A DNA stretch of 64,000 nucleotides from Clostridia bacterium (GCA_036660635.1 JAVXAF010000002.1:23657-87656); one strand, 5' to 3'; positions 4,820 through 64,000 are shown, numbered from the stretch's first letter. Program-made: numbers and translations. The notes: generated from the sequence alone by a model not told the origin.

Positions 4820-4895
4820 CGGGGTGTAGCGCAATTGGTAGCGCGCGTGGTTTGGGACCATGAGGTTGCAGGTTCAAGTCCTGTCACTCCGACCA
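4820..4895 (+). tRNA. tRNA-Pro (anticodon UGG), CCA encoded
   Basis: Manual cloverleaf: acceptor CGGGGTG/CACTCCG (one G-U), D arm GCGC-AATTGGTA-GCGC, anticodon arm CGTGG-TTTGGGA-CCATG, T arm GCAGG-TTCAAGT-CCTGT, then ACCA. Confidence 0.9.
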
Positions 4896-14689: not shown

Positions 14690-14947
14690 ATATAAAAGCT
14701 ATGATGAAGAGGAGTAGAATAAAGGTTGCTTTAAGAGAGAAAAACTCATTGGTTGAAAAGTTTTTTAAGTAAACGTATTTGAAGGTAGCTTCGGAGCTGG
14801 CACACTGAAGTTTTTATGTGTAGGTATGTCCCGTCATACATCGGTTAATGTAAATGAAGAGTATATGCATTATGCATATAAAATAAGGTGGTACCGCGAA
14901 TTACAGTCATTCGTCCTTATATCATAAGGATAAATGGCTGCTTTTTA
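14690..14947 (+). promoter_or_regulatory. T-box riboswitch leader (tRNA-Val responsive, candidate specifier GUA at 14785-14787) with terminator/antiterminator
   Basis: Canonical T-box sequence GGTGGTACCGCG at 14887-14898. Terminator arms are 14904-14919 and 14925-14940, followed by CTTTTT. An AGAGA-containing stem I region lies near 14734. valS lies downstream. Confidence 0.85.
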
Positions 14948-53411: not shown

Positions 53412-56400
53412 ATGAGCAAACTAGTAAAAGATGTTTTTACAAATTATATAGATGTTTCTAATGCTTTATTAGAAGCTACAATAGACGAAATGAAATTTTC
53501 TAAAAAGCTTAATGCAGTTATTTTAAATACATCAAGTGTAAAAAGTATTCCTCTATCAGATATTGAAGAGTTTGAAAAAATTGCGGCTAAATCATATGAA
53601 CTAAATACGCTTAAAGTAAATTATGAATTTAGAGGCAAAGCTTTAAGTTGCGAGGTAGAAGATATAAAAAAAATACTTGAATATATAAATAAAAAAAATA
53701 TATATACTCAAGATATATTTGAAAATTGTGTTATTGATTTAGATAAGGACTCTAACTTTGTAAATATAACTTTGCAAAAGCCATTTGCACAGTTTTTAAA
53801 AATAAAAAAAATGGATAAGTATATACAAAAAAGTATTAATATAGAATTTGGATTAAATTACACAGTTAATATATCTCAAATAGCTTCTACAGGCGAAAAA
53901 AAAGATCGTTTTAATATAGTAAAGTTAGAAAGTATTTCACCAAATGTAACATTTTCAAATAATAAAAAAGAGAATGTTAATACTCAAACAAAAAAGCAAG
54001 ATTTTGTTAAAAGAGCACCGCTTAGTGAAGAAGAAAAAAAAGAAAGAGTTCTTGCTAAAGACCCACAACCAGATGTTGTAATATATGGTGTACAAATAAA
54101 AGATACTGACAGGACAAAGGTGGAAGATCTAGTCTCAGGTCAAGAGAGAGTGTGTATTGAGGGCGAACTTTTTCAAAAAGATATACATGAAACCAAGAAA
54201 GGTAAAATGTTAGTTACACTAGATGTAACCGATTTTACAAGTACTATTGCATGTAAAATGTTTTTAGACAAAAAGAAGTTTTTGGAAGTTTCACCAAAAC
54301 TTGTTGAAGGAGACTATATCAGTTTGCAAGGTAGAGCTCAGTTTGATAATTATTCAAATGAGTTAAGTATAATGGTAAATAATATAAATAAAGCACAAAA
54401 ACCAGAGCTTAAAAAAGATAATGCAGATAAAAAACGTGTTGAACTACATTTACATACTCAAATGAGTGCAATGGACGCGGTAAGTTCAGCTACCGATATT
54501 ATAAATCAAGCAATAAGATGGGGACATAGTGCTATTGCAATAACTGATCATGGTGTTGCACAAGCATTTCCAGAAGCACTACACGTAATAACAAATAAAT
54601 TTGCTAAGCTTGTGAAAAAGGAAAAAGGGTACCCTACAACTCAAGAAATAATTGATGAAGCTCCAATTAAAATTATTTATGGAGTAGAGGGATATTTAAC
54701 AAAAGATATTGAAGTAGAACCCGAATATCCAGATACATTTTGTGTTTTTGACATAGAAACTACAGGATTTCATCATAAGGTAGATAAAATAACAGAAATA
54801 GCAGTTTGCAAAGTAAAAGATGGAGTTATAATAGATGAATTTTCTACTTTTGTAAATCCTGAAAGATATATTCCAGAAGAAGTGCAAAAGCTTACTCATA
54901 TAACAGAAGATTTAGTAAAAGATGCTCCTACAATAAAAGAAGTCTTACCAGAATTTTTGGAATTTACTAAAGGGACAATTTTAGTAGCGCATAATGCAAA
55001 GTTTGATATAGGTTTTATAAAACACTTTGCTGATGAACTAGATTTGGAATTTAATCCGAAAGTTATTGATACTCTTACAATGTCAAGAGAATTATATAAT
55101 AATTTTGAAAATCATAAACTTGCTACTGTTGCAGAAAATCTAGGGATATCTTTAGAGGGAGCACATAGAGCTATAAACGATACAAGAGCAACAGCAAAAG
55201 TATTTTTAAAAATGCAAGAAGATGCTGCAAAAGTAGGAATAGGCAAGTATGGATATATGTACTCAGTTATATCTGAAGAAGCAAAAAAGTTACCATATTA
55301 TCATATTATAATAATGGCAAAAAATTATGTTGGACTTAAAAATCTATATAAATTAATATCGTTTTCACATCTTAATTTTTTTAATAAAAGGCCAAGAATT
55401 CCAAGGTCACTTTTAAACAGATATAAAGAAGGTCTCATTATTGGCTCTGCATGTGAGAGAGGAGAACTTTATCAAGCTATATATGAAAAAAAGCCACAAG
55501 AGCAAATAGATGCTATTGGTATGTTTTATGATTATTTTGAAGTACAGCCACTTGGTAATAATCAGTTCTACTTAGATCAAGGACTTTTAGAGTCTAAGGA
55601 TGATTTAATAAGAATAAATAAAGATATAGTAAAACTTGGAGATAAACTGAAAAAGCCAGTTGTCGCCACTTGTGACGTCCATTTTTTAAATCCGGAAGAT
55701 GAAATATACAGACGAATAATAATGGCAGGACAAGGATATGCAGATGCTGATAAACAAGCACCTCTATATTTTAGAACAACTGAGGAAATGCTAAATGAAT
55801 TTTATTATCTACCAGAAGAAAAAGCTTATGAAATTGTTGTTGAAAATACAAATAAAGTAGCAGATATGTGTGAGAGAATTAGTCCAATATCTGATGAAAA
55901 ATGTCCACCACATATTGAAGGGTGTGAAAAAACAATTGAAGATATAGCAATTACTAAAGCAAAAGAATTGTATGGTGATAATCTGCCTAAGATAGTAGAA
56001 GAAAGATTAGAAAAAGAGCTAGATTCTATTATAAAAAACGGATTTGCTGTTATGTATATAATAGCTCAAAAGTTAGTATGGAAGTCTAATGAAGATGGAT
56101 ATTTAGTTGGATCTAGAGGATCTGTTGGATCATCTTTTGTCGCAAATATGACAGGTATTACTGAGGTTAATTCACTTCCACCACATTATATATGCCCAAA
56201 TTGTAAATATAGTGATTTTACTGATAAGGGTGTTAAAAACGGATTTGATCTTCCTGATATGGATTGCCCAAAATGTGGAACAAAACTTGGAAAAGATGGT
56301 ATGGATATTCCATTTGAAACTTTCCTTGGATTTAATGGAGACAAAGAACCCGATATAGATTTAAACTTTTCTGGAGAATATCAAGCAAAAGCTCATAAAT

Positions 56401-57794
56401 ATACTGAAGTGATTTTTGGAAAAGGTACTACATATAAAGCTGGGACAATAGGAACAATAGCAGATAAAACTGCATATGGATTTGTAATGAAATATTTAGA
56501 AGAAAAGCAAAAAACAATGCTTTCTCCAGAAATAAATAGAATCTCAAAAGGATGTACAGGAGTAAAAAGAACATCAGGTCAACATCCAGGTGGTATTATA
56601 GTTGTACCAAAAGGAAGAGAAATATATGAGTTTTGTCCTGTACAACATCCAGCTGATGATCCACATTCAAATATAGTTACTACTCATTTTGATTATCACT
56701 CTATTGATAAAAACTTACTTAAACTTGATATTTTAGGACATGATGATCCTACTATGATAAGAATGTTACAAGATATTACTGGGGTGGATCCAAAAAAAAT
56801 ACCACTTGATGATAAAGAAACAATGTCTATATTTAGCTCAACTGACGCATTAAAACTAACAAAGGACCAAATAAAATCAGAGGTTGGAACTTTTGGAATA
56901 CCAGAGTTTGGAACTAAGTTTGTAAGAGAAATGCTTGTTGATACAAGGCCAACTACTTTTGAAGAGTTGATAAGAATATCTGGACTATCTCATGGTACAG
57001 ATGTATGGTTAGATAACGCTCAAAGTTTAATTGAAGATGGGATTGTAACTCTTGATGATGCAATATGTACAAGAGATGATATAATGATTTATTTGATTAA
57101 AATGGGTCTTCCACCAAACTCTGCGTTTAAAATTATGGAAATAGTTCGTAAGGGTAAAGCGTTAAAAGATCCAATTAAGTGGGAAGAATATAAACAACTT
57201 ATGAAAAAAAATAATATCCCAGATTGGTACATTAAATCTTGTGAAAAGATCAAATATATGTTTCCTAAGGCCCATGCGGCAGCATATGTAACTATGGCTT
57301 TTAGAATAGCTTGGTTTAAAGTACATATTCCAGAAGCATATTATGCTTCATTTATGTCTATTAGAGCAGATGACTTTGATAGTGATTCCATGTTATATGG
57401 AAAAGATAGAGTAAAATCTAAAATGAAAGAGATAGAATCTCTTGGAAATACAGCATCAAATAAAGAAAAAAATATGTATCCTATTTTAGAAATAGTTCTT
57501 GAAATGAATGAACGAAAAATAAACTTTTTGCCTGTTGATATATATATATCAGATGATAAAAAATTTTTAGTAGAACAAGATGGAATAAGACCACCATTTT
57601 CTTCTCTTACAGGATTTGGTGAAGTAGACGCGGCTAAACTTATTGAAGCAAGAAAAGAAGGCCAATTTACATCTATAGAACAAATGGCAAATAAAGCTAA
57701 ACTTGGAAAAGTAGCTGTAGAAGTGTTGCAAAGATCGGGATGTTTAGATGGTATGCCACGTTCTGAGCAAATGGATATGTTTGATATACTTTAG
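53412..57794 (+). CDS. polC: DNA polymerase III PolC-type (PHP, 3'-5' exonuclease, polymerase core)
   Basis: The 1460-aa size fits PolC. VELHLHTQMSAMD is the PHP motif. FCVFDIETTGF and AHNAKFDIGF belong to the exonuclease domain. PDIDLNFSGEYQ and KLDILGHDDPT mark the polymerase core. Confidence 0.95.
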   Translation: MSKLVKDVFTNYIDVSNALLEATIDEMKFSKKLNAVILNTSSVKSIPLSDIEEFEKIAAKSYELNTLKVNYEFRGKALSCEVEDIKKILEYINKKNIYTQDIFENCVIDLDKDSNFVNITLQKPFAQFLKIKKMDKYIQKSINIEFGLNYTVNISQIASTGEKKDRFNIVKLESISPNVTFSNNKKENVNTQTKKQDFVKRAPLSEEEKKERVLAKDPQPDVVIYGVQIKDTDRTKVEDLVSGQERVCIEGELFQKDIHETKKGKMLVTLDVTDFTSTIACKMFLDKKKFLEVSPKLVEGDYISLQGRAQFDNYSNELSIMVNNINKAQKPELKKDNADKKRVELHLHTQMSAMDAVSSATDIINQAIRWGHSAIAITDHGVAQAFPEALHVITNKFAKLVKKEKGYPTTQEIIDEAPIKIIYGVEGYLTKDIEVEPEYPDTFCVFDIETTGFHHKVDKITEIAVCKVKDGVIIDEFSTFVNPERYIPEEVQKLTHITEDLVKDAPTIKEVLPEFLEFTKGTILVAHNAKFDIGFIKHFADELDLEFNPKVIDTLTMSRELYNNFENHKLATVAENLGISLEGAHRAINDTRATAKVFLKMQEDAAKVGIGKYGYMYSVISEEAKKLPYYHIIIMAKNYVGLKNLYKLISFSHLNFFNKRPRIPRSLLNRYKEGLIIGSACERGELYQAIYEKKPQEQIDAIGMFYDYFEVQPLGNNQFYLDQGLLESKDDLIRINKDIVKLGDKLKKPVVATCDVHFLNPEDEIYRRIIMAGQGYADADKQAPLYFRTTEEMLNEFYYLPEEKAYEIVVENTNKVADMCERISPISDEKCPPHIEGCEKTIEDIAITKAKELYGDNLPKIVEERLEKELDSIIKNGFAVMYIIAQKLVWKSNEDGYLVGSRGSVGSSFVANMTGITEVNSLPPHYICPNCKYSDFTDKGVKNGFDLPDMDCPKCGTKLGKDGMDIPFETFLGFNGDKEPDIDLNFSGEYQAKAHKYTEVIFGKGTTYKAGTIGTIADKTAYGFVMKYLEEKQKTMLSPEINRISKGCTGVKRTSGQHPGGIIVVPKGREIYEFCPVQHPADDPHSNIVTTHFDYHSIDKNLLKLDILGHDDPTMIRMLQDITGVDPKKIPLDDKETMSIFSSTDALKLTKDQIKSEVGTFGIPEFGTKFVREMLVDTRPTTFEELIRISGLSHGTDVWLDNAQSLIEDGIVTLDDAICTRDDIMIYLIKMGLPPNSAFKIMEIVRKGKALKDPIKWEEYKQLMKKNNIPDWYIKSCEKIKYMFPKAHAAAYVTMAFRIAWFKVHIPEAYYASFMSIRADDFDSDSMLYGKDRVKSKMKEIESLGNTASNKEKNMYPILEIVLEMNERKINFLPVDIYISDDKKFLVEQDGIRPPFSSLTGFGEVDAAKLIEARKEGQFTSIEQMANKAKLGKVAVEVLQRSGCLDGMPRSEQMDMFDIL

Positions 57795-57895
57795 ATAGAA
57801 GTTAAAAGTCTAAAGCCTATTACTTATAGGACGCATATTGAATTTATCCTTAACATATGATATAATGAAATCAATAAAAAAAGGGACGTGAAAAA

Positions 57896-58195
57896 ATGAA
57901 AACTTTCATGCACGAGTTAACTCGGATTAAAAAAATCCGAAAAATGAGAAAAGATTTACAGTATTCTAAGAGATTACGCTCTAATGAGCGTATATGCCAG
58001 ATTAAAGAAGATATGTTAGATTCCTATATGTCTTCACAAAATAAATTCAAATTTTACATTGATATATCAAGTGAAGTAGATAAAGATGTAATATATCATT
58101 TAGCAAAAAAATATGAATTTTTTATTGTAGAAGAAAAATATTTACAAGCTACAAAAACTACTAGATTTTATTTTAAAGAATCAAAATCACATTAG
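57896..58195 (+). CDS. Hypothetical basic protein (99 aa)
   Basis: An ORF with an upstream AAAGGGACGTGA RBS-like sequence. No family recognised. Confidence 0.4.
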   Translation: MKTFMHELTRIKKIRKMRKDLQYSKRLRSNERICQIKEDMLDSYMSSQNKFKFYIDISSEVDKDVIYHLAKKYEFFIVEEKYLQATKTTRFYFKESKSH

Positions 58196-58392
58196 TATTT
58201 GAAAAAATTATAAAAAAGCGTTATTATAAAATATAACGCTTTTTTATTTGTGGTATAGTACTATAAAATATATTTTTAAATTGATTTAACTATGTATATT
58301 TTGTGTAAAAGGTGTGAAATGTTTATAAAAAGAATTATTTACTATTGAAAAATATATAAAATAGTGTATAATATATCTATGAGGTGATTACT

Positions 58393-58743
58393 ATGAAATT
58401 AGATTTAACAGGACTTCGTATAGAAGTTACAGATGCAATTAGAGATTTTACTGAAAAAAAAGTAGAAAAATTGTCTAAATTTTTTGATGAGGAAACAATT
58501 TGTCATGTTACATTTTCAGCTCCTGTAAAAGCAAAACAAAATGTTAATATTAGGATTGAATACAAGTCTCGTACTTACTTAGCTGAGACAGATACTGAAG
58601 ATTATTATTACTCTATTGAAGAGCTAGTAAATAAAATCGAAGGTCAAATTAGAAAAGACAAAGCATTAATTGAAAAAAAAAGAAGAGAAACTATACCAGA
58701 ACAAGAAATTGAAGATATCGAAGATATTTTAGATGAAGAATAA
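58393..58743 (+). CDS. hpf: Ribosome hibernation promoting factor / RaiA family, short form with acidic tail
   Basis: The sequence IEVTDAIRDFTEKKVEKLSKFF...VNIRIEY...AETDTEDYYYSIEELVNKIEGQIRK matches the sigma-54 modulation protein/S30EA fold pattern. No C-terminal dimerisation domain is present. I chose ATG 58393. Confidence 0.8.
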   Translation: MKLDLTGLRIEVTDAIRDFTEKKVEKLSKFFDEETICHVTFSAPVKAKQNVNIRIEYKSRTYLAETDTEDYYYSIEELVNKIEGQIRKDKALIEKKRRETIPEQEIEDIEDILDEE

Positions 58744-58877
58744 AAAATAGTTGAAATTTAAAATTAAGAGTACTAATTATATATAGTTAGTGCTCTTAAT
58801 GATTTAAACCATGAAACAAAAAAATAAAATTATAAAATTTTCTGTTATTATATATTTTTTTGTGATATAATTAGTTC

Positions 58878-59933
58878 ATGATGAAAATAAAAGCAATATA
58901 TAATTTTAGTGAAGATATTAATTTTAAATTATTAAAAGATTGTGGCAAAAAAATAAAAGATGGCTTTACAATAGTATTTCCTACGGAAACAGTTTATGGA
59001 ATAGGTACAAATGCCTTAGATAAAAAAGCTGTAAAAAAGATATTTATTGCAAAGGGAAGACCAACAGATAATCCTTTAATTGTACATATAAGTGATTATA
59101 GAATGCTAAAACCACTTGTTAAAAATGTAACTAAAATAGAAAAAAAATTAATGAAAACATTTTGGCCAGGGCCAATGACTATAGTTTTACCTAAAACTGA
59201 TTTAATACCAGATATTGTGACTTGTGGTATGGATACAGTTGGAATACGAATGCCCTCAAATATAATTGCAAAAAAACTAATCAAATATGCAAAAGTTCCG
59301 GTTGCAGCTCCAAGTGCTAATATATCTGGTAGGCCAAGTGGGACTGCTTTAGAAGATATTGTAGATGAATTAGATGATAAAGTAGATTATATGATAGATG
59401 GTGGAGCATGTGAAGTTGGTGTTGAGTCGACAGTAATAAAGGTAGTAAATGATGAGGTTATTATACTAAGACCAGGAAAAATAACTAAGGAAGATATAGA
59501 AGATTTAGGTATTAGTGTAAAATTGGATAGCCATATTTTTTCTGATGTAAAAAATGATGAAAAAGTATTATCTCCAGGTATGAAACATAGACATTATGCG
59601 CCTAAAACAAAAGCTATTTTAGTTGAAAATGCAAAAAAAGAGAATTTTGTGGATTATGTGGATAAATTAATCTTAGAAAATAAAAGAGTTTGTGTTATAA
59701 GTTTTGATGAATATAAAAAAGAATTTGAATTAAAACAAAATGTAGAGTTCTTAAATTTAGGAAGTTATTCAAACTTAGCACAAATTTCAAAGAAATTATT
59801 TTCTGTGCTTAGGAAAATAGATAAATTAAATGTAGATATTTGTATAATAAGTGCAGTAGAAAAAAAAGGTATTGGCACTGCTATAATGAATAGACTGTAT
59901 AGAGCGTGTGGATACAATATTGTTAAATTGTAG
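58878..59933 (+). CDS. tsaC: L-threonylcarbamoyladenylate synthase (Sua5/YwlC long form)
   Basis: Motifs are FPTETVYGIGTNA, IFIAKGRPTDNPLIVHI, FWPGPMT and APSANISGRPS. A C-terminal Sua5 domain is present. Confidence 0.9.
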   Translation: MMKIKAIYNFSEDINFKLLKDCGKKIKDGFTIVFPTETVYGIGTNALDKKAVKKIFIAKGRPTDNPLIVHISDYRMLKPLVKNVTKIEKKLMKTFWPGPMTIVLPKTDLIPDIVTCGMDTVGIRMPSNIIAKKLIKYAKVPVAAPSANISGRPSGTALEDIVDELDDKVDYMIDGGACEVGVESTVIKVVNDEVIILRPGKITKEDIEDLGISVKLDSHIFSDVKNDEKVLSPGMKHRHYAPKTKAILVENAKKENFVDYVDKLILENKRVCVISFDEYKKEFELKQNVEFLNLGSYSNLAQISKKLFSVLRKIDKLNVDICIISAVEKKGIGTAIMNRLYRACGYNIVKL

Positions 59934-60003
59934 TTTTGTAATAAACGTAATTGCTTTTTAGAGCATTTATGTGATAATATAAATAAAAAATAGGAGTGAT
60001 GAA

Positions 60004-60621
60004 ATGATTTATATTTTAACAGGTGGACCTGCAACAGGAAAAGGAACAAGATCAGATATTTTAGCAAGATATTTAGAAATTCCTCATATTTCGACAGGTG
60101 AAATATTAAGAAATGTAAGCAAAACAGATGCCAAAATGGCTGAAATGCTATCAAGAGGAATGCTGATTTCTGATGAAATAATAACAAAATTAGTAAAAGC
60201 AAGAATAAGCATGGAAGACTGTAAAGATGGCTTCGTATTAGATGGATACCCTCGAACTTTACCTCAAGTATATTTATTAAATGAGGTTTTAAAAGATTTG
60301 GGCAGAAAAATCGATAAAGTTGTTGAATTGGTGGTTCCAGATGAGCTAGTATATAGAAGAATACTTGAGAGAAAGCAATGTAAAAATTGTTCGAAAATGT
60401 ATGGAATAGATTTCCCACCAAAAGTTGAAAATGTTTGCGATGATTGTGGAGGAGAATTAATTGTAAGAACAGATGATACAAAAGAAACTCTTAAAAATAG
60501 AATTGATACATATAAAGCAAATGCAAAAGATATTTTGGACTATTATAGAGATGAAGGACTATTAAAAACTGTAGATGCATCATCTCATCCAGAATCAGTT
60601 GTAGAAGATATTAAAGATTAA
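60004..60621 (+). CDS. adk: Adenylate kinase with zinc-lid
   Basis: The P-loop is GGPATGKGT. Other motifs are ISTGEILR and GFVLDGYPRT. The lid reads CKNCSKMY...CDDCGGEL. Confidence 0.9.
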   Translation: MIYILTGGPATGKGTRSDILARYLEIPHISTGEILRNVSKTDAKMAEMLSRGMLISDEIITKLVKARISMEDCKDGFVLDGYPRTLPQVYLLNEVLKDLGRKIDKVVELVVPDELVYRRILERKQCKNCSKMYGIDFPPKVENVCDDCGGELIVRTDDTKETLKNRIDTYKANAKDILDYYRDEGLLKTVDASSHPESVVEDIKD

Positions 60622-60637
60622 TTGGGAAGTGTAAAAA

Positions 60638-61405
60638 ATGATTAATATTAAAAATGAGCATGAAATAAAATTAATGCAAAATTCTGCAGATGTATTAAAG
60701 TCTGCATTAAAAGCGATTGAAGAAAATATACGCCCGGGTGTTACAACACTGCAATTAAATAGAGTAGCTGAAGAAGCAATGATAAAAGGTGGAGCAATAC
60801 CAGCATTTAAAGGTGAACAGTGTCCATATCGTGGTGGAAAATCATATAAATGGGCGATATGTACTTCTGTTAATGATGAAATAATACATGGGATACCAAC
60901 AAATGACAAGGTATTAAAAGAAGGCGATATTGTAAGTGTAGATCTAGGTGTATTACTTAATGGATGGGCCTCAGATGCAGGAAGAACATACGGAGTAGGA
61001 AAGATATCGCCTGTTGCACAAAAATTAATTAATGTAGCTAAAGATGCATTTTTTGCGGGAGTAGATAAAGCTGTTGAGGGAAATAGAGTAGGAGATATCT
61101 CTAATGCTGTGCAAACATATGTAGAAAAGCAAGGATTTTCACTATTAAGAGAATATCAAGGACATGGTATAGGAAAAGAAATGCATGAAGATCCAGGAGT
61201 ACCTAATATTGGAAGGAAAGGAACTGGTCCTAGACTTCAAAAAGGAATGGCACTCGCAATAGAGCCTATGATATGTGAAAAAAAGCCAGATGTATATGTA
61301 AAACCTGATATGTGGACAGTAGCAACTAAAGATGGAGCTTTTACTGCTTATTATGAAAATACTATTGTAATAACAGATAAAGAAGCAAAGATTTTAACGC
61401 TATAG
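60638..61405 (+). CDS. map: Methionine aminopeptidase type I
   Basis: Motifs are CTSVNDEIIHGIP, DIVSVDLG, WASDAGRTY, GHGIGKEMHE, ALAIEPM and YENTIVIT. Confidence 0.95.
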   Translation: MINIKNEHEIKLMQNSADVLKSALKAIEENIRPGVTTLQLNRVAEEAMIKGGAIPAFKGEQCPYRGGKSYKWAICTSVNDEIIHGIPTNDKVLKEGDIVSVDLGVLLNGWASDAGRTYGVGKISPVAQKLINVAKDAFFAGVDKAVEGNRVGDISNAVQTYVEKQGFSLLREYQGHGIGKEMHEDPGVPNIGRKGTGPRLQKGMALAIEPMICEKKPDVYVKPDMWTVATKDGAFTAYYENTIVITDKEAKILTL

Positions 61406-61430
61406 TAATTTTAAAAAATAAGGGGGATAT

Positions 61431-62141
61431 ATGAATAAAGATACAGTAAACACATATATTTCATACACTGCAATACTTGGAATTGTTGTAAAAGCTTTGC
61501 AGGTTATATTATGTATAATGGAAAATCCTGGATTTATCACTCCGACAATTACATATCATATTTTAATGATATGTCCATTTGTTATACTTTTTTATGCTTC
61601 AAGAAAAAAATATAGTTCGGTGTGTTTAATGGGAATTATAATTGCTGTAGCTACAATTGTGTCGTTTAATATTTTTGATGTTATATATGCTACGATATTG
61701 ATAATTGTATCACTTTTACTTCTTCCTTCCAGAGAAATATATAGAGACTCATATAAAAAAAACAGATTTAAAAATATTTGGTTACTTATACTTTTTATAG
61801 TGTTTGCTTTAACAATTCCAATTAATTTATATGAAATTGAAAGTGATAAATTTTCAAACTTAACTCCTAAAGTAATTGTTGATAATTTTGATGTATCACG
61901 TAATAGAATAGCCAAAGAATGCGAAATATATATTAGAAAAAATAATATATTTCCAATTTATGATGATACGGGAAAAATAAATTTTGATGAGTTGGGAATT
62001 GTTGAACCTACAATATTTAAAGGACAAGGAAAGTGGGTTTATTCAGGAAAAATAAATGGAAAAGTTGAATTTGTGTTATTTAATGATTCATATTTAGCAA
62101 AAAAAGGATATAAAAGTTTATTTAGCACTCAGACTAATTAA
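61431..62141 (+). CDS. Hypothetical membrane protein (about 4 TM helices plus C-terminal soluble domain)
   Basis: Strong AAGGGGGA RBS. Hydrophobic helices fill the first 130 aa. No family recognised. Confidence 0.5.
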   Translation: MNKDTVNTYISYTAILGIVVKALQVILCIMENPGFITPTITYHILMICPFVILFYASRKKYSSVCLMGIIIAVATIVSFNIFDVIYATILIIVSLLLLPSREIYRDSYKKNRFKNIWLLILFIVFALTIPINLYEIESDKFSNLTPKVIVDNFDVSRNRIAKECEIYIRKNNIFPIYDDTGKINFDELGIVEPTIFKGQGKWVYSGKINGKVEFVLFNDSYLAKKGYKSLFSTQTN

Positions 62142-62216
62142 AATGGTACAAGGCTGACATGCAATAAATACAAAAATTGGCATAAACATATACCAAAGTG
62201 ATTGGAGGATATGTTT

Positions 62217-62867
62217 ATGCTTTTTTCTTTTTTTAGTAGTTTATTATCGCATATGTTTTTTCTATTTGGATATATCTCAAATAATAATTTGTTTCCAGAA
62301 CCATTATCTAAGACAGAAGAAGAATATTATTTAAAAAAATATTTTGAGGGCGACAAAGACGCAAGAAATGTTTTAATTGAACATAATTTAAGATTAGTAG
62401 CTCATATTGCTAAAAAATATTCAAATAATGAGCAAGAATTAGAAGAACTAATATCAATTGGAACAATTGGACTTATAAAGGCAATAAACAGCTTTAGTTG
62501 TGACAAAGGCTTTAAGGTTAGTACATATGCCAGTAAATGCGTTGAAAATGAAATTTTGATGAATATACGATCAACAAAAAAACAAAAATATGAAGTTTCA
62601 ATGAATACAATAATTGGAACAGATAAAGATGGAAACGATATGGAATTAGTTGAGACAATTGATTCAAATGCTAAAGATGCAATTGATACAATATATAACA
62701 AAATAATGACAGATCAAGTTATTAATTATGTTAACACAAAGCTAACAAAAAGAGAAAAGTATATAATGAATTTAAGATATGGAATTAATGGCAAAAATAC
62801 AAAAACACAACAAGAAATAGCTGATGAACTTGGAATTTCACGTAGCTATGTATCAAGAACTTGTTAG
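62217..62867 (+). CDS. sigK: RNA polymerase sporulation sigma factor K, 5' segment only: reading frame ends inside region 4.2 (interrupted or truncated gene)
   Basis: The pro-sequence followed by YISNNNLFPEPLS, then LIEHNLRLVAHIAKKY, ISIGTIGLIKAI, YASKCVENEILM and TQQEIADELGISRSYVSR, are collinear with SigK. After ...SYVSR the frame reads TC-stop. The expected IEKRAL... recognition-helix continuation and C-terminus are missing. I chose ATG 62217, which has a GGAGG RBS 8 nt upstream. Confidence 0.8.
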   Translation: MLFSFFSSLLSHMFFLFGYISNNNLFPEPLSKTEEEYYLKKYFEGDKDARNVLIEHNLRLVAHIAKKYSNNEQELEELISIGTIGLIKAINSFSCDKGFKVSTYASKCVENEILMNIRSTKKQKYEVSMNTIIGTDKDGNDMELVETIDSNAKDAIDTIYNKIMTDQVINYVNTKLTKREKYIMNLRYGINGKNTKTQQEIADELGISRSYVSRTC

Positions 62868-63140
62868 TACACATATGACAAAACCTTAGCAAATCAACGT
62901 TTTTTAAAACCATTCAAATATAAAAGCAATAACAAAAAATCAATTTTTTTAATATTAAGCAGGACAAGTAATAAATTTTAATTATTTAAGCTACTACTAT
63001 AAATATTATAGAGTAGTTTTTTTATGTGAAAGAATAGATAAAAATAATATTAAATTTATATAAAATAATGTAATAATAAATGTTTTTATTCCATTTTTCG
63101 ACTAAAAAAATGGAAAGTATAGGAAAGAGCCCCCTCTCTA

Positions 63141-63149
63141 TGGTATAAT
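63141..63149 (+). promoter_or_regulatory. Extended -10 element (TGGTATAAT) upstream of the RT gene
   Basis: Read directly from the sequence, 55 nt upstream of ATG 63204. No good -35 element is present. Confidence 0.35.
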
Positions 63150-63203
63150 ATTTAATGAAATAATATATATGCGATGAAAATAAAAAGCTAAGAAGGAGAT
63201 AGT

Positions 63204-64000
63204 ATGAAACAGATATTAAAAATGAATTCAGATAATGCAAAGAAATATTTTTTAAAAGAAAAGAGTTATTTTAATGTAGATTTACCACCATATTTTAAAT
63301 TTCAAGACATATTAAATAGCTGTGAACAATCTCTATTAGTAGAAAAAGATATAAAGAATTTATATAAAACGGGAAAATTTCCAAAAAATTGTGAAAATGT
63401 GAATTATAAATTTTTATGCAACAAAGATGGAAAATTTGCATGGAGACCTTTTCAAATAATACATCCATTGTTATACGTAAATTTAGTTAATCAAATAACC
63501 CAAAATGAAAATTGGAATAAAATTCAAAAACGTTTTGTGGAATTTAAAAAAAATAAGAATATTGTTTGTTGTAGCGATTTACTAGAATCTGATACTAAAT
63601 TGCATGATAAATTTTCAACAATAATGAATTGGTGGGGAAAGTTTGAACAACAATCAATAGAATTATCAGCACAATATTCAAAAATTGCTTGTACAGATAT
63701 AACGGATTGTTATGGAAGTATATATACACATACCATAGTTTGGGCAATAGAAGGCAGGGATATTGCTAAGCAAAAAAAGAATGATAAAAAATTCAATAAA
63801 ACAATTTCTCCACAAATAGATAAACTATTACAAGAGATGTCTTATGGTGAAACAAATGGAATTCCACAAGGCAGCGCTTTAATGGATTTTATAGCAGAAA
63901 TAGTATTAGGTTATGCGGATTTATTATTGACTGAAAAACTAGAAACATTACAAATAAAAAATTACAAAATTTTGAGATATAGAGATGATTATCGAATATT
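63204..64000 (+). CDS. Reverse transcriptase, stand-alone defence-type (Abi/UG/DRT-like), 3' end outside window
   Basis: Not in the ORF track because it runs off the window. AAGGAG RBS at 63193-63198. Translated motifs are FAWRPFQIIHPLLYV (RT1/2-like), ACTDITDCYGSIYTH (motif A Asp), NGIPQGSALMDFIAEIVL (motif B) and KILRYRDDYRI (motif C, YxDD). Confidence 0.85.
   Translation, partial: MKQILKMNSDNAKKYFLKEKSYFNVDLPPYFKFQDILNSCEQSLLVEKDIKNLYKTGKFPKNCENVNYKFLCNKDGKFAWRPFQIIHPLLYVNLVNQITQNENWNKIQKRFVEFKKNKNIVCCSDLLESDTKLHDKFSTIMNWWGKFEQQSIELSAQYSKIACTDITDCYGSIYTHTIVWAIEGRDIAKQKKNDKKFNKTISPQIDKLLQEMSYGETNGIPQGSALMDFIAEIVLGYADLLLTEKLETLQIKNYKILRYRDDYRI

Follow-up and report, generated by a model that had tools for sequence, protein, structure and literature searches.

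What kind of reverse transcriptase (RT) gene lies immediately beyond a broken sporulation sigma factor gene, and on what kind of DNA is it carried? The question is raised by the end of a 64,000-nucleotide stretch of DNA from a Clostridia bacterium (the whole stretch is called the window here), in which sigK stops short of its usual end and is followed by an RT-like reading frame running off the last nucleotide. Elements that split sigK are familiar from skin in Bacillus subtilis, skinCd in C. difficile, and the phiS63 prophage in C. perfringens. In published descriptions, such sporulation-gene intervening elements figure as prophages or remnants of prophages, with cargo regarded as incidental. 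That defense genes lie at the borders of integrated mobile elements is, for its part, the rule and not the exception. An earlier, sequence-only reading of this locus had proposed a stand-alone defense RT on DNA that interrupts sigK and had left the class of the enzyme undecided. Taken as a whole, the observations are best explained, with good confidence on our part, by the N-terminal half of an Abi-P2 abortive-infection polymerase that forms the outermost gene of likely excisable DNA inserted into sigK. The features on which this explanation rests are collected in Table 1.

Table 1. Features around the sigK junction and the RT gene in the window, and related elements at the same site
Feature	Position	Strand	Evidence or content
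sigK 5' fragment (pro-sigma-K), 214 genuine codons followed by Thr-Cys and TAG	62217..62867	+	SigK PRK05803
Insertion junction (attL-like)	62847..62882	.	Nucleotide comparison with the intact sigK of L092 and with attL/attR of L084, L088, and L090
Terminator-like A+T-rich hairpin followed by T7, between the sigK 5' fragment and RT	62988..63023	+	RNA fold
Extended -10-like TGgTATAAT, 55 nt 5' of RT start	63141..63149	+	Consensus match only, poor -35
Ribosome-binding site GGAG, 6 nt 5' of ATG	63194..63197	+	Sequence
RT, first 265 codons, spanning the fingers and the palm through motif C	63204..64000	+	AbiP2 profile, 7R08, P2-EC58/P2-EC30
Tyr30 codon, predicted protein-priming tyrosine (LPPYFKF)	63291..63293	+	Aligns with Abi-P2 Tyr61; 76/76
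Asp165 codon, motif A catalytic aspartate	63696..63698	+	76/76
Asp261-Asp262 codons, motif C (YRDD)	63984..63989	+	76/76; preceding Tyr corresponds to Abi-P2 Tyr282
L084 element, 4.45 kb	L084:10640-15095		Both junctions seen
L088 element, 5.1 kb	L088:5140-10285		Both junctions seen
L099 element	L099:1055-4483		PhdYeFM-like gene, 522-aa serine recombinase
L090 element	L090:8946-11680		233-aa gene of no known kind, nucleotidyltransferase, radical-SAM protein (weakly pVip-like)

Foreign DNA splits sigK in its last codons

The 5' fragment of sigK (sigK') matches the NCBIfam SigK model PRK05803 with an E value of 3.7e-85 over profile positions 3-215 of 235 and contains the Pfam domains Sigma70_r2 and a truncated Sigma70_r4; a TTG at 62202 is an alternative start. 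The pro-sequence is kept and the last ~16 codons are missing. The product ends ...ELGISRSYVSR-TC-stop at the point where the intact orthologues P0122, P0123, P0126, and P0162 go on with IETKVQNKLKK..., and the closest intact orthologues, at 81-85% identity, continue with ...SRSYVSRIETKVQNKLKKHVKWE. The orthologous loci are syntenic with the window: the genes leading up to sigK encode, in order, S30AE (ribosome hibernation factor), Sua5, Adk, Map, and a 235-aa membrane protein.

In the nucleotide comparison, 62859 is the last position similar to sigK and the DNA is foreign from 62860 onwards, with the insertion point lying within the region 4.2 recognition helix (SRSYVSR|IE); reconstructed, the intact gene reads ...TATGTATCAAGAATHGAAAC.... 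The earlier claim of an interrupted sigK is thereby borne out, with the intact syntenic orthologues putting the junction at about 62859/62860, and by this comparison sigK is split by inserted foreign DNA. Centered on 62860 is an imperfect palindrome, TGTATCAAGAACTTGTTAGTACA (62847-62870), with 9 of 14 positions paired; it is A+T-rich and, weak evidence alone, might be the dyad expected of a hybrid recombinase site. A TATGAC motif follows at 62877-62882. A search of the 64-kb window found no attR and, on either strand, no sigK 3' fragment, and the 1.1 kb of the element in view holds no recombinase. Junction 27- and 33-mers had 0 matches in viral and metagenome contigs.

Two features upstream of the junction bear on the genomic setting of sigK. 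In the closest species with an intact sigK, a DUF1016/YhcG gene (PDDEXK nuclease-like) lies between the membrane protein gene and sigK (L092:6711-7688, L093:6498-7475); it is absent from the window, and therefore the DNA directly upstream of sigK is also variable. Further away, a spoIIID homologue at 51855-52109 (equal to L001:425-679) adjoins an MreB/Mbl gene upstream of polC. The presence of spoIIID and of a sigK that retains its pro-sequence indicates that this organism has kept a Bacillus-like late mother-cell program.

The split is not peculiar to one assembly. An identical truncated SigK protein is known from two metagenome-assembled genomes (MAGs) (MEG2348681.1 and MEG2645595.1), in one case on a 93-kb contig. 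The 21-kb contig JAVXFS010000016.1 of GCA_036657795.1 is 100% identical to positions 51431-63017 of the window (11.6 kb compared) and shares the junction together with 150 nt of the foreign DNA; since two MAGs have the same junction, the sigK split is real and not private to a single assembly. The same contig ends at 63017, which is the first T of the hairpin T-run and lies 187 nt before the RT gene. Because it stops short of RT, the linkage between RT and sigK' rests on one assembly. Seven contigs carrying P0133 likewise end exactly at the truncated sigK codon (the ends of L095-L098), and these contig breaks at the sigK junction suggest that integrated and excised forms are mixed, or that the elements vary, in the sampled populations.

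Related elements occupy the same site

To place the junction among others, the 120 best SigK matches were surveyed, the window's own protein included. SigK is truncated within two codons of the window's break in 6 of the 120, again counting the window's own. In the five relatives sigK is cut no more than 6 nt from the window's point, and with the shared core allowed for, the window junction lies 4-6 nt to the 3' side. Within the resolution of this comparison, the junctions of the window and its relatives are the same site.

Four of the related elements are listed in Table 1, those of L084 and L088 being complete. L084 contains a large serine recombinase of 487 aa, located next to sigK' on the opposite strand, and as other cargo a small open reading frame (ORF), a Bro-N protein (PADLOC candidate PDC-S13, E=8e-126), and a RepA_N fragment; its ends show the 10-nt direct repeat CTATGTATCG and imperfect inverted ends. 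L088 carries a 524-aa serine recombinase and a complete type II restriction-modification (R-M) system that consists of a methylase, an REase_II nuclease (E=6e-120), and a second methylase. Here the 3' piece of sigK comes directly after the element, and a 3' piece was found in L084, too. No recognizable recombinase lies next to sigK' in L090. In L084, L088, and L099 the recombinase adjoins sigK' on the opposite strand; in the window a co-oriented RT takes its place, and the window's element is therefore organized differently.

Directly 5' of the recombinase, and on the same strand, lies an ORF of 40-47 aa (L084:12418-12540, L085:12419-12541, L088:6853-6996, L099:3499-3621), which is a candidate recombination directionality factor or regulator. 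A shared end motif was also considered. TATGAC or TATGAT occurs near all junctions, in the form GTAC-N3-TATGAC here versus CTAC-N5-TATGAC in L084, L088, and L090; in a generic motif search such TATGAC-type motifs proved not rare, and the candidate is a weak one.

As related elements occupy the same sigK site, the DNA to the right of 62860 is likely, by analogy, to be the end of a comparable recombinase-mobilized element. The interruption might instead be a dead end that is never excised, leaving sigK a pseudogene in a non-sporulating lineage, or the contig might be misassembled after about 63017. A pseudogene would be in keeping with the lack of a recombinase where related elements have one, yet sigK' shows no other damage and has 85% identity to intact orthologues, other sporulation genes such as spoIIID lie nearby, and a recombinase could sit at the far end of the element. 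A misassembly would account for the second MAG contig stopping at 63017, at an A+T-rich hairpin and T-run, for the frequent breaks at this place in metagenome assemblies of the clade (seven contigs end exactly at the junction), and for an RT sequence that was found in no other sample searched; against this, two MAGs agree letter for letter at the junction and over 150 nt of the foreign DNA and, as a weak argument, the G+C content is continuous across 63017. We consider a dead end or a misassembly improbable and prefer an excisable element with RT at its edge.

The RT is an Abi-P2 polymerase

The RT frame begins with an ATG and, as had been pointed out from the sequence, runs for 265 codons without a stop up to 64000, where it is still open. 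It contains the four motifs previously listed for it, in the same order: WRPFQIIHP, TDITDCYGSI, GIPQGSALMDFIAEIVL, and RYRDDY. The AbiP2 model of PADLOC matches the fragment with an E value of 5.5e-114 and 379.7 bits over model positions 4-256 of 489, a match well past anything expected by chance and in agreement with the stand-alone defense RT of the Abi/UG type that the sequence-only reading had seen in it. The best match in the PDB is 7R08, the Abi-P2 of E. coli (E=7.2e-53), with all 265 residues aligned and 39% identity in our own alignment, while AbiK, DRT3b, and UG15 reach no better than 1e-8 to 1e-11. In tblastn searches of phage records, the fragment retrieved the founding Abi-P2 genes of P2-EC58 and P2-EC30 at 38-39% identity (E about 1e-47). 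The fragment is, on these comparisons, unambiguously an Abi-P2 family polymerase, of which 265 of ~500 codons are in view.

The class had been held to be undeterminable from 265 codons. This statement is wrong, given the lead of AbiP2 over all other classes in PADLOC and the dominance of Abi-P2 among the 7R08 and tblastn matches. Several Abi/UG (DRT) classes had also been called mechanistically uncharacterized; at the enzyme level, Abi-P2 is not one of them. It could still be argued that the AbiP2 assignment is an artifact of the conserved core and that the protein belongs to another UG/DRT class (UG14, DRT6, DRT4, or others), for instance one with a noncoding RNA (ncRNA) template or partner effectors. 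The next PADLOC classes do match the fragment, namely, UG14 at 6e-40 (135.4 bits), Drt6 at 2.5e-36, and Drt4 at 1.4e-35, as does AbiK at about 1e-20; Drt4 and Drt3b also appear in the NCBIfam results, with scores well under their cutoffs; and the C-terminal half, which defines the class, lies past 64000. However, AbiP2 is ahead by about 245 bits in an alignment that starts from residue 1 and includes the N-terminal fingers extension, the closest full-length relatives are AbiP2 from end to end, and among solved structures 7R08 leads by about 40 orders of magnitude in E value. A structured RNA signal is also absent upstream of RT. Another UG/DRT class is thus very improbable, and we retain the assignment to Abi-P2.

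A retroelement RT (a group II intron maturase or a retron RT) in place of a defense polymerase, which the generic RT motifs and a weak TIGR04416 match (E=1.6e-5) might bring to mind, is effectively refuted by a TIGR04416 score of 24 bits against a cutoff of 300, by an Rfam search that yielded no RNA family of introns or retrons at E values up to 10, by the absence of a retron model from the best 25 of 28 PADLOC matches, and by a 160-aa N-terminal extension with a priming tyrosine that is specific to Abi polymerases. The earlier view that this is not a group II intron RT agrees with that TIGR04416 score.

Relatives of the RT are rather distant. No protein above 59% identity was found in a protein search, RT relatives in a scan of genome contigs have 56% identity or less, and an exact 53-mer from the RT had 0 matches in viral and metagenome contigs. 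A Pfam scan of the fragment gave no domain match; PF00078 is present in RT homologues. The protein, a divergent Abi-P2 homologue of an uncultured spore-former of the gut, is useful for sampling of the family and by itself unsurprising.

Priming and catalytic residues are conserved

The DNA synthesis of Abi-P2 is template independent and primed on Tyr61 (Figiel et al., PMC9508834), a tyrosine that sits on the alpha2-alpha3 loop of the fingers. Tyr61 of the Abi-P2 construct is native Tyr30 and aligns with Tyr30 of the window's RT; that construct residue 32 is native Met1 can be deduced from where Tyr46, Tyr61, and Tyr282 fall in the 7R08 alignment. We aligned the window fragment and the 7R08 fragment with 74 complete homologues from genomes (76 sequences in total), and Tyr30, Asp165, Asp261, and Asp262 are invariant in all 76. 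With the priming and catalytic residues invariant, the visible half carries the residue set of an active enzyme, and it is from this that we infer enzymatic activity.

The part of the protein that lies outside the window can be anticipated from its homologues. Complete RT homologues have 490-530 aa. Three of the closest, from MAGs of Bacilli and Clostridia and at 54-56% identity, span positions 4-486 of the 489-position AbiP2 model, with E values of 1e-168 to 1e-187, and one close full-length homologue aligns with residues 32-530 of 7R08. Because full-length homologues match AbiP2 and 7R08 throughout, ~230-250 further codons are expected past 64000, and these would encode the end of the palm and a trimer-forming helical domain, although a frameshift or another kind of C-terminal domain past 64000 is conceivable.

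RT is probably transcribed separately from sigK

Of the signals that had been proposed to precede RT, both the ribosome-binding site and the extended -10 element are there (Table 1). The latter comes with a poor -35 region, which is the reason why a consensus promoter scan omits it. Between sigK' and RT lies a terminator-like hairpin with a folding energy of -11.1 kcal/mol, followed by a U-run in the RNA; the consensus terminator scan, which requires 3 G-C pairs, does not call it. The hairpin would fit a termination of read-through from sigK', with transcription of RT then starting from its own -10 element. With its own promoter-like element and ribosome-binding site 3' of a terminator-like hairpin, RT is probably transcribed apart from sigK and expressed independently of it. 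The sole other ORF of the 336-nt spacer, on the minus strand at 63022-63240 (72 aa), is of low complexity and overlaps the start of RT; it was rejected as a gene, which makes RT the first credible gene past the sigK break.

The spacer at 62868-63203 had been suggested as a place to look for a structured ncRNA, and none was detected in it. Rfam gave nothing upstream of RT at gathering thresholds and, at E values up to 10, only a meaningless subthreshold miRNA match inside the RT ORF, and the folding of the 336-nt spacer did not differ significantly from that of shuffled sequences (z-scores of -1.66 and 0.0). With both Rfam and the fold tests empty, an ncRNA partner in the spacer was rejected. 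For an RT of the Abi-P2 type, no ncRNA partner is expected.

Homologues recur beside other defense genes

When the three ORFs closest to each RT homologue on either side were clustered, no neighbor proved universal among 76 loci. The largest clusters of neighbors are HsdS, HsdM, and HsdR, and GmrSD and RhuM also recur. The nearest Firmicutes homologues adjoin an Eco57I-type methylase, a DpnII-type nuclease, Abi_alpha, or a Fic protein whose N-terminal domain is IrrE-like (Peptidase_M78). Judged by its neighbors, this pattern is that of a stand-alone defense gene in defense islands. In 15 of the 76 loci (e.g., L022, L023, L030, and L033), RT is located inside a type I R-M operon, between hsdS and hsdR. 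Plasmids of Enterococcus, Staphylococcus, and lactic acid bacteria often carry the family (208 records), and Abi-P2 family members also occur in Listeria phages. None of 80 homologue loci lies beside sigK. Our literature search found no Firmicutes Abi-P2 homologue with measured anti-phage activity.

Proposed mode of action and comparison with known systems

We propose that the full RT, of ~500 aa, would combine RT-like fingers and palm with a C-terminal helical domain that replaces the thumb. The helical domain would drive assembly of a trimer, and the polymerase would need neither an RNA template nor a partner gene. The first nucleotide would be joined to the RT's own Tyr30, and single-stranded DNA (ssDNA) of random sequence would then be extended at D165/D261/D262 in a template-free manner. 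Expression from this single gene may be constitutive, with an activity that, when triggered, would interfere with phage development and keep the phage from propagating, probably at the expense of the cell. By analogy with the elements at the same site, the inserted DNA would be a serine-recombinase-mobilized element whose excision in the mother cell restores sigK. The rejoining of sigK would remove RT from the mother-cell chromosome, and the forespore would retain it. The anti-phage role of RT is predicted from its family membership, and developmental excision of the sigK element is plausible given the related elements.

The closest known system is the Abi-P2 of P2-EC30 and P2-EC58 (7R08), which belongs to the same family and has the same priming tyrosine and catalytic aspartates. 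As in P2-like prophages, RT is a single gene at the edge of an integrated mobile element. The window's RT differs from the E. coli enzyme, to which it is 39% identical, in its host, which is a low-G+C gut Clostridia MAG versus a Gram-negative enterobacterium, and in its carrier, which is sigK-inserted DNA versus a P2 prophage. AbiK of Lactococcus and AbiA resemble the window's RT in that protein-primed, template-independent synthesis of ssDNA by an RT-like and a helical domain would be expected for all of them (PMC9508834, PMC11077055). The similarity of AbiK to the window's RT is much weaker (about 1e-20 in PADLOC and 1e-8 in the PDB). Moreover, AbiK assembles as a hexamer and AbiA as a dimer that carries a HEPN domain, whereas Abi-P2 is a trimer.

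With regard to the element, the likeness to skin, skinCd, and phiS63 lies in the splitting of sigK by foreign DNA and, in the same-site relatives, in a SpoIVCA-like large serine recombinase that adjoins the 5' sigK fragment. In contrast to those elements, the insertion here is at the region 4.2 recognition helix, and the complete elements of the relatives, at 4.5-5.1 kb, are not prophage-like. In B. cereus, gin-type non-prophage elements interrupt gerE (PMC5595907). Like the elements of L084 and L088, these are small, are not prophages, encode a recombinase and a handful of cargo genes, and sit within a sporulation gene; in structure they offer the best analogy to those two elements. They differ in their target gene and in that the cargo here is defense-like (type II R-M, Bro-N/PDC-S13, and Abi-P2); in the literature, we did not find defense-like cargo reported for intervening elements.

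A possible landing site for defense cassettes

The cargo at this site varies from locus to locus: L088 has a type II R-M system, L084 the Bro-N/PDC-S13 candidate, L090 a nucleotidyltransferase and a radical-SAM protein, and the window Abi-P2. These differences lead us to speculate, with considerable doubt, that the SRSYVSR codons might serve as a landing site for small recombinase-borne cassettes that carry differing anti-phage systems in a clade of gut Clostridia related to Clostridium sp. CAG:465. If this were true, a developmental excision site would double as a swappable defense locus, and the defense gene would be lost from the mother cell exactly when sigma-K is switched on and kept in the forespore. 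Suicidal (Abi) immunity could in this way be uncoupled from the terminal mother cell. Should it be upheld, the idea would join the field of mobile defense islands to that of developmental DNA rearrangement and offer a natural system in which one of two sister cells loses a defense gene on schedule. A search of the literature turned up no paper that ties sporulation-gene intervening elements to anti-phage cargo. The enzyme family and the kind of element are both already known, and it is the combination of Abi-P2 with sigK-interrupting DNA that appears to be new.

Elsewhere in the window, a T-box leader at 14692-14921 (131.8 bits) and a tRNA gene at 4820-4892 are ordinary features unrelated to the locus.
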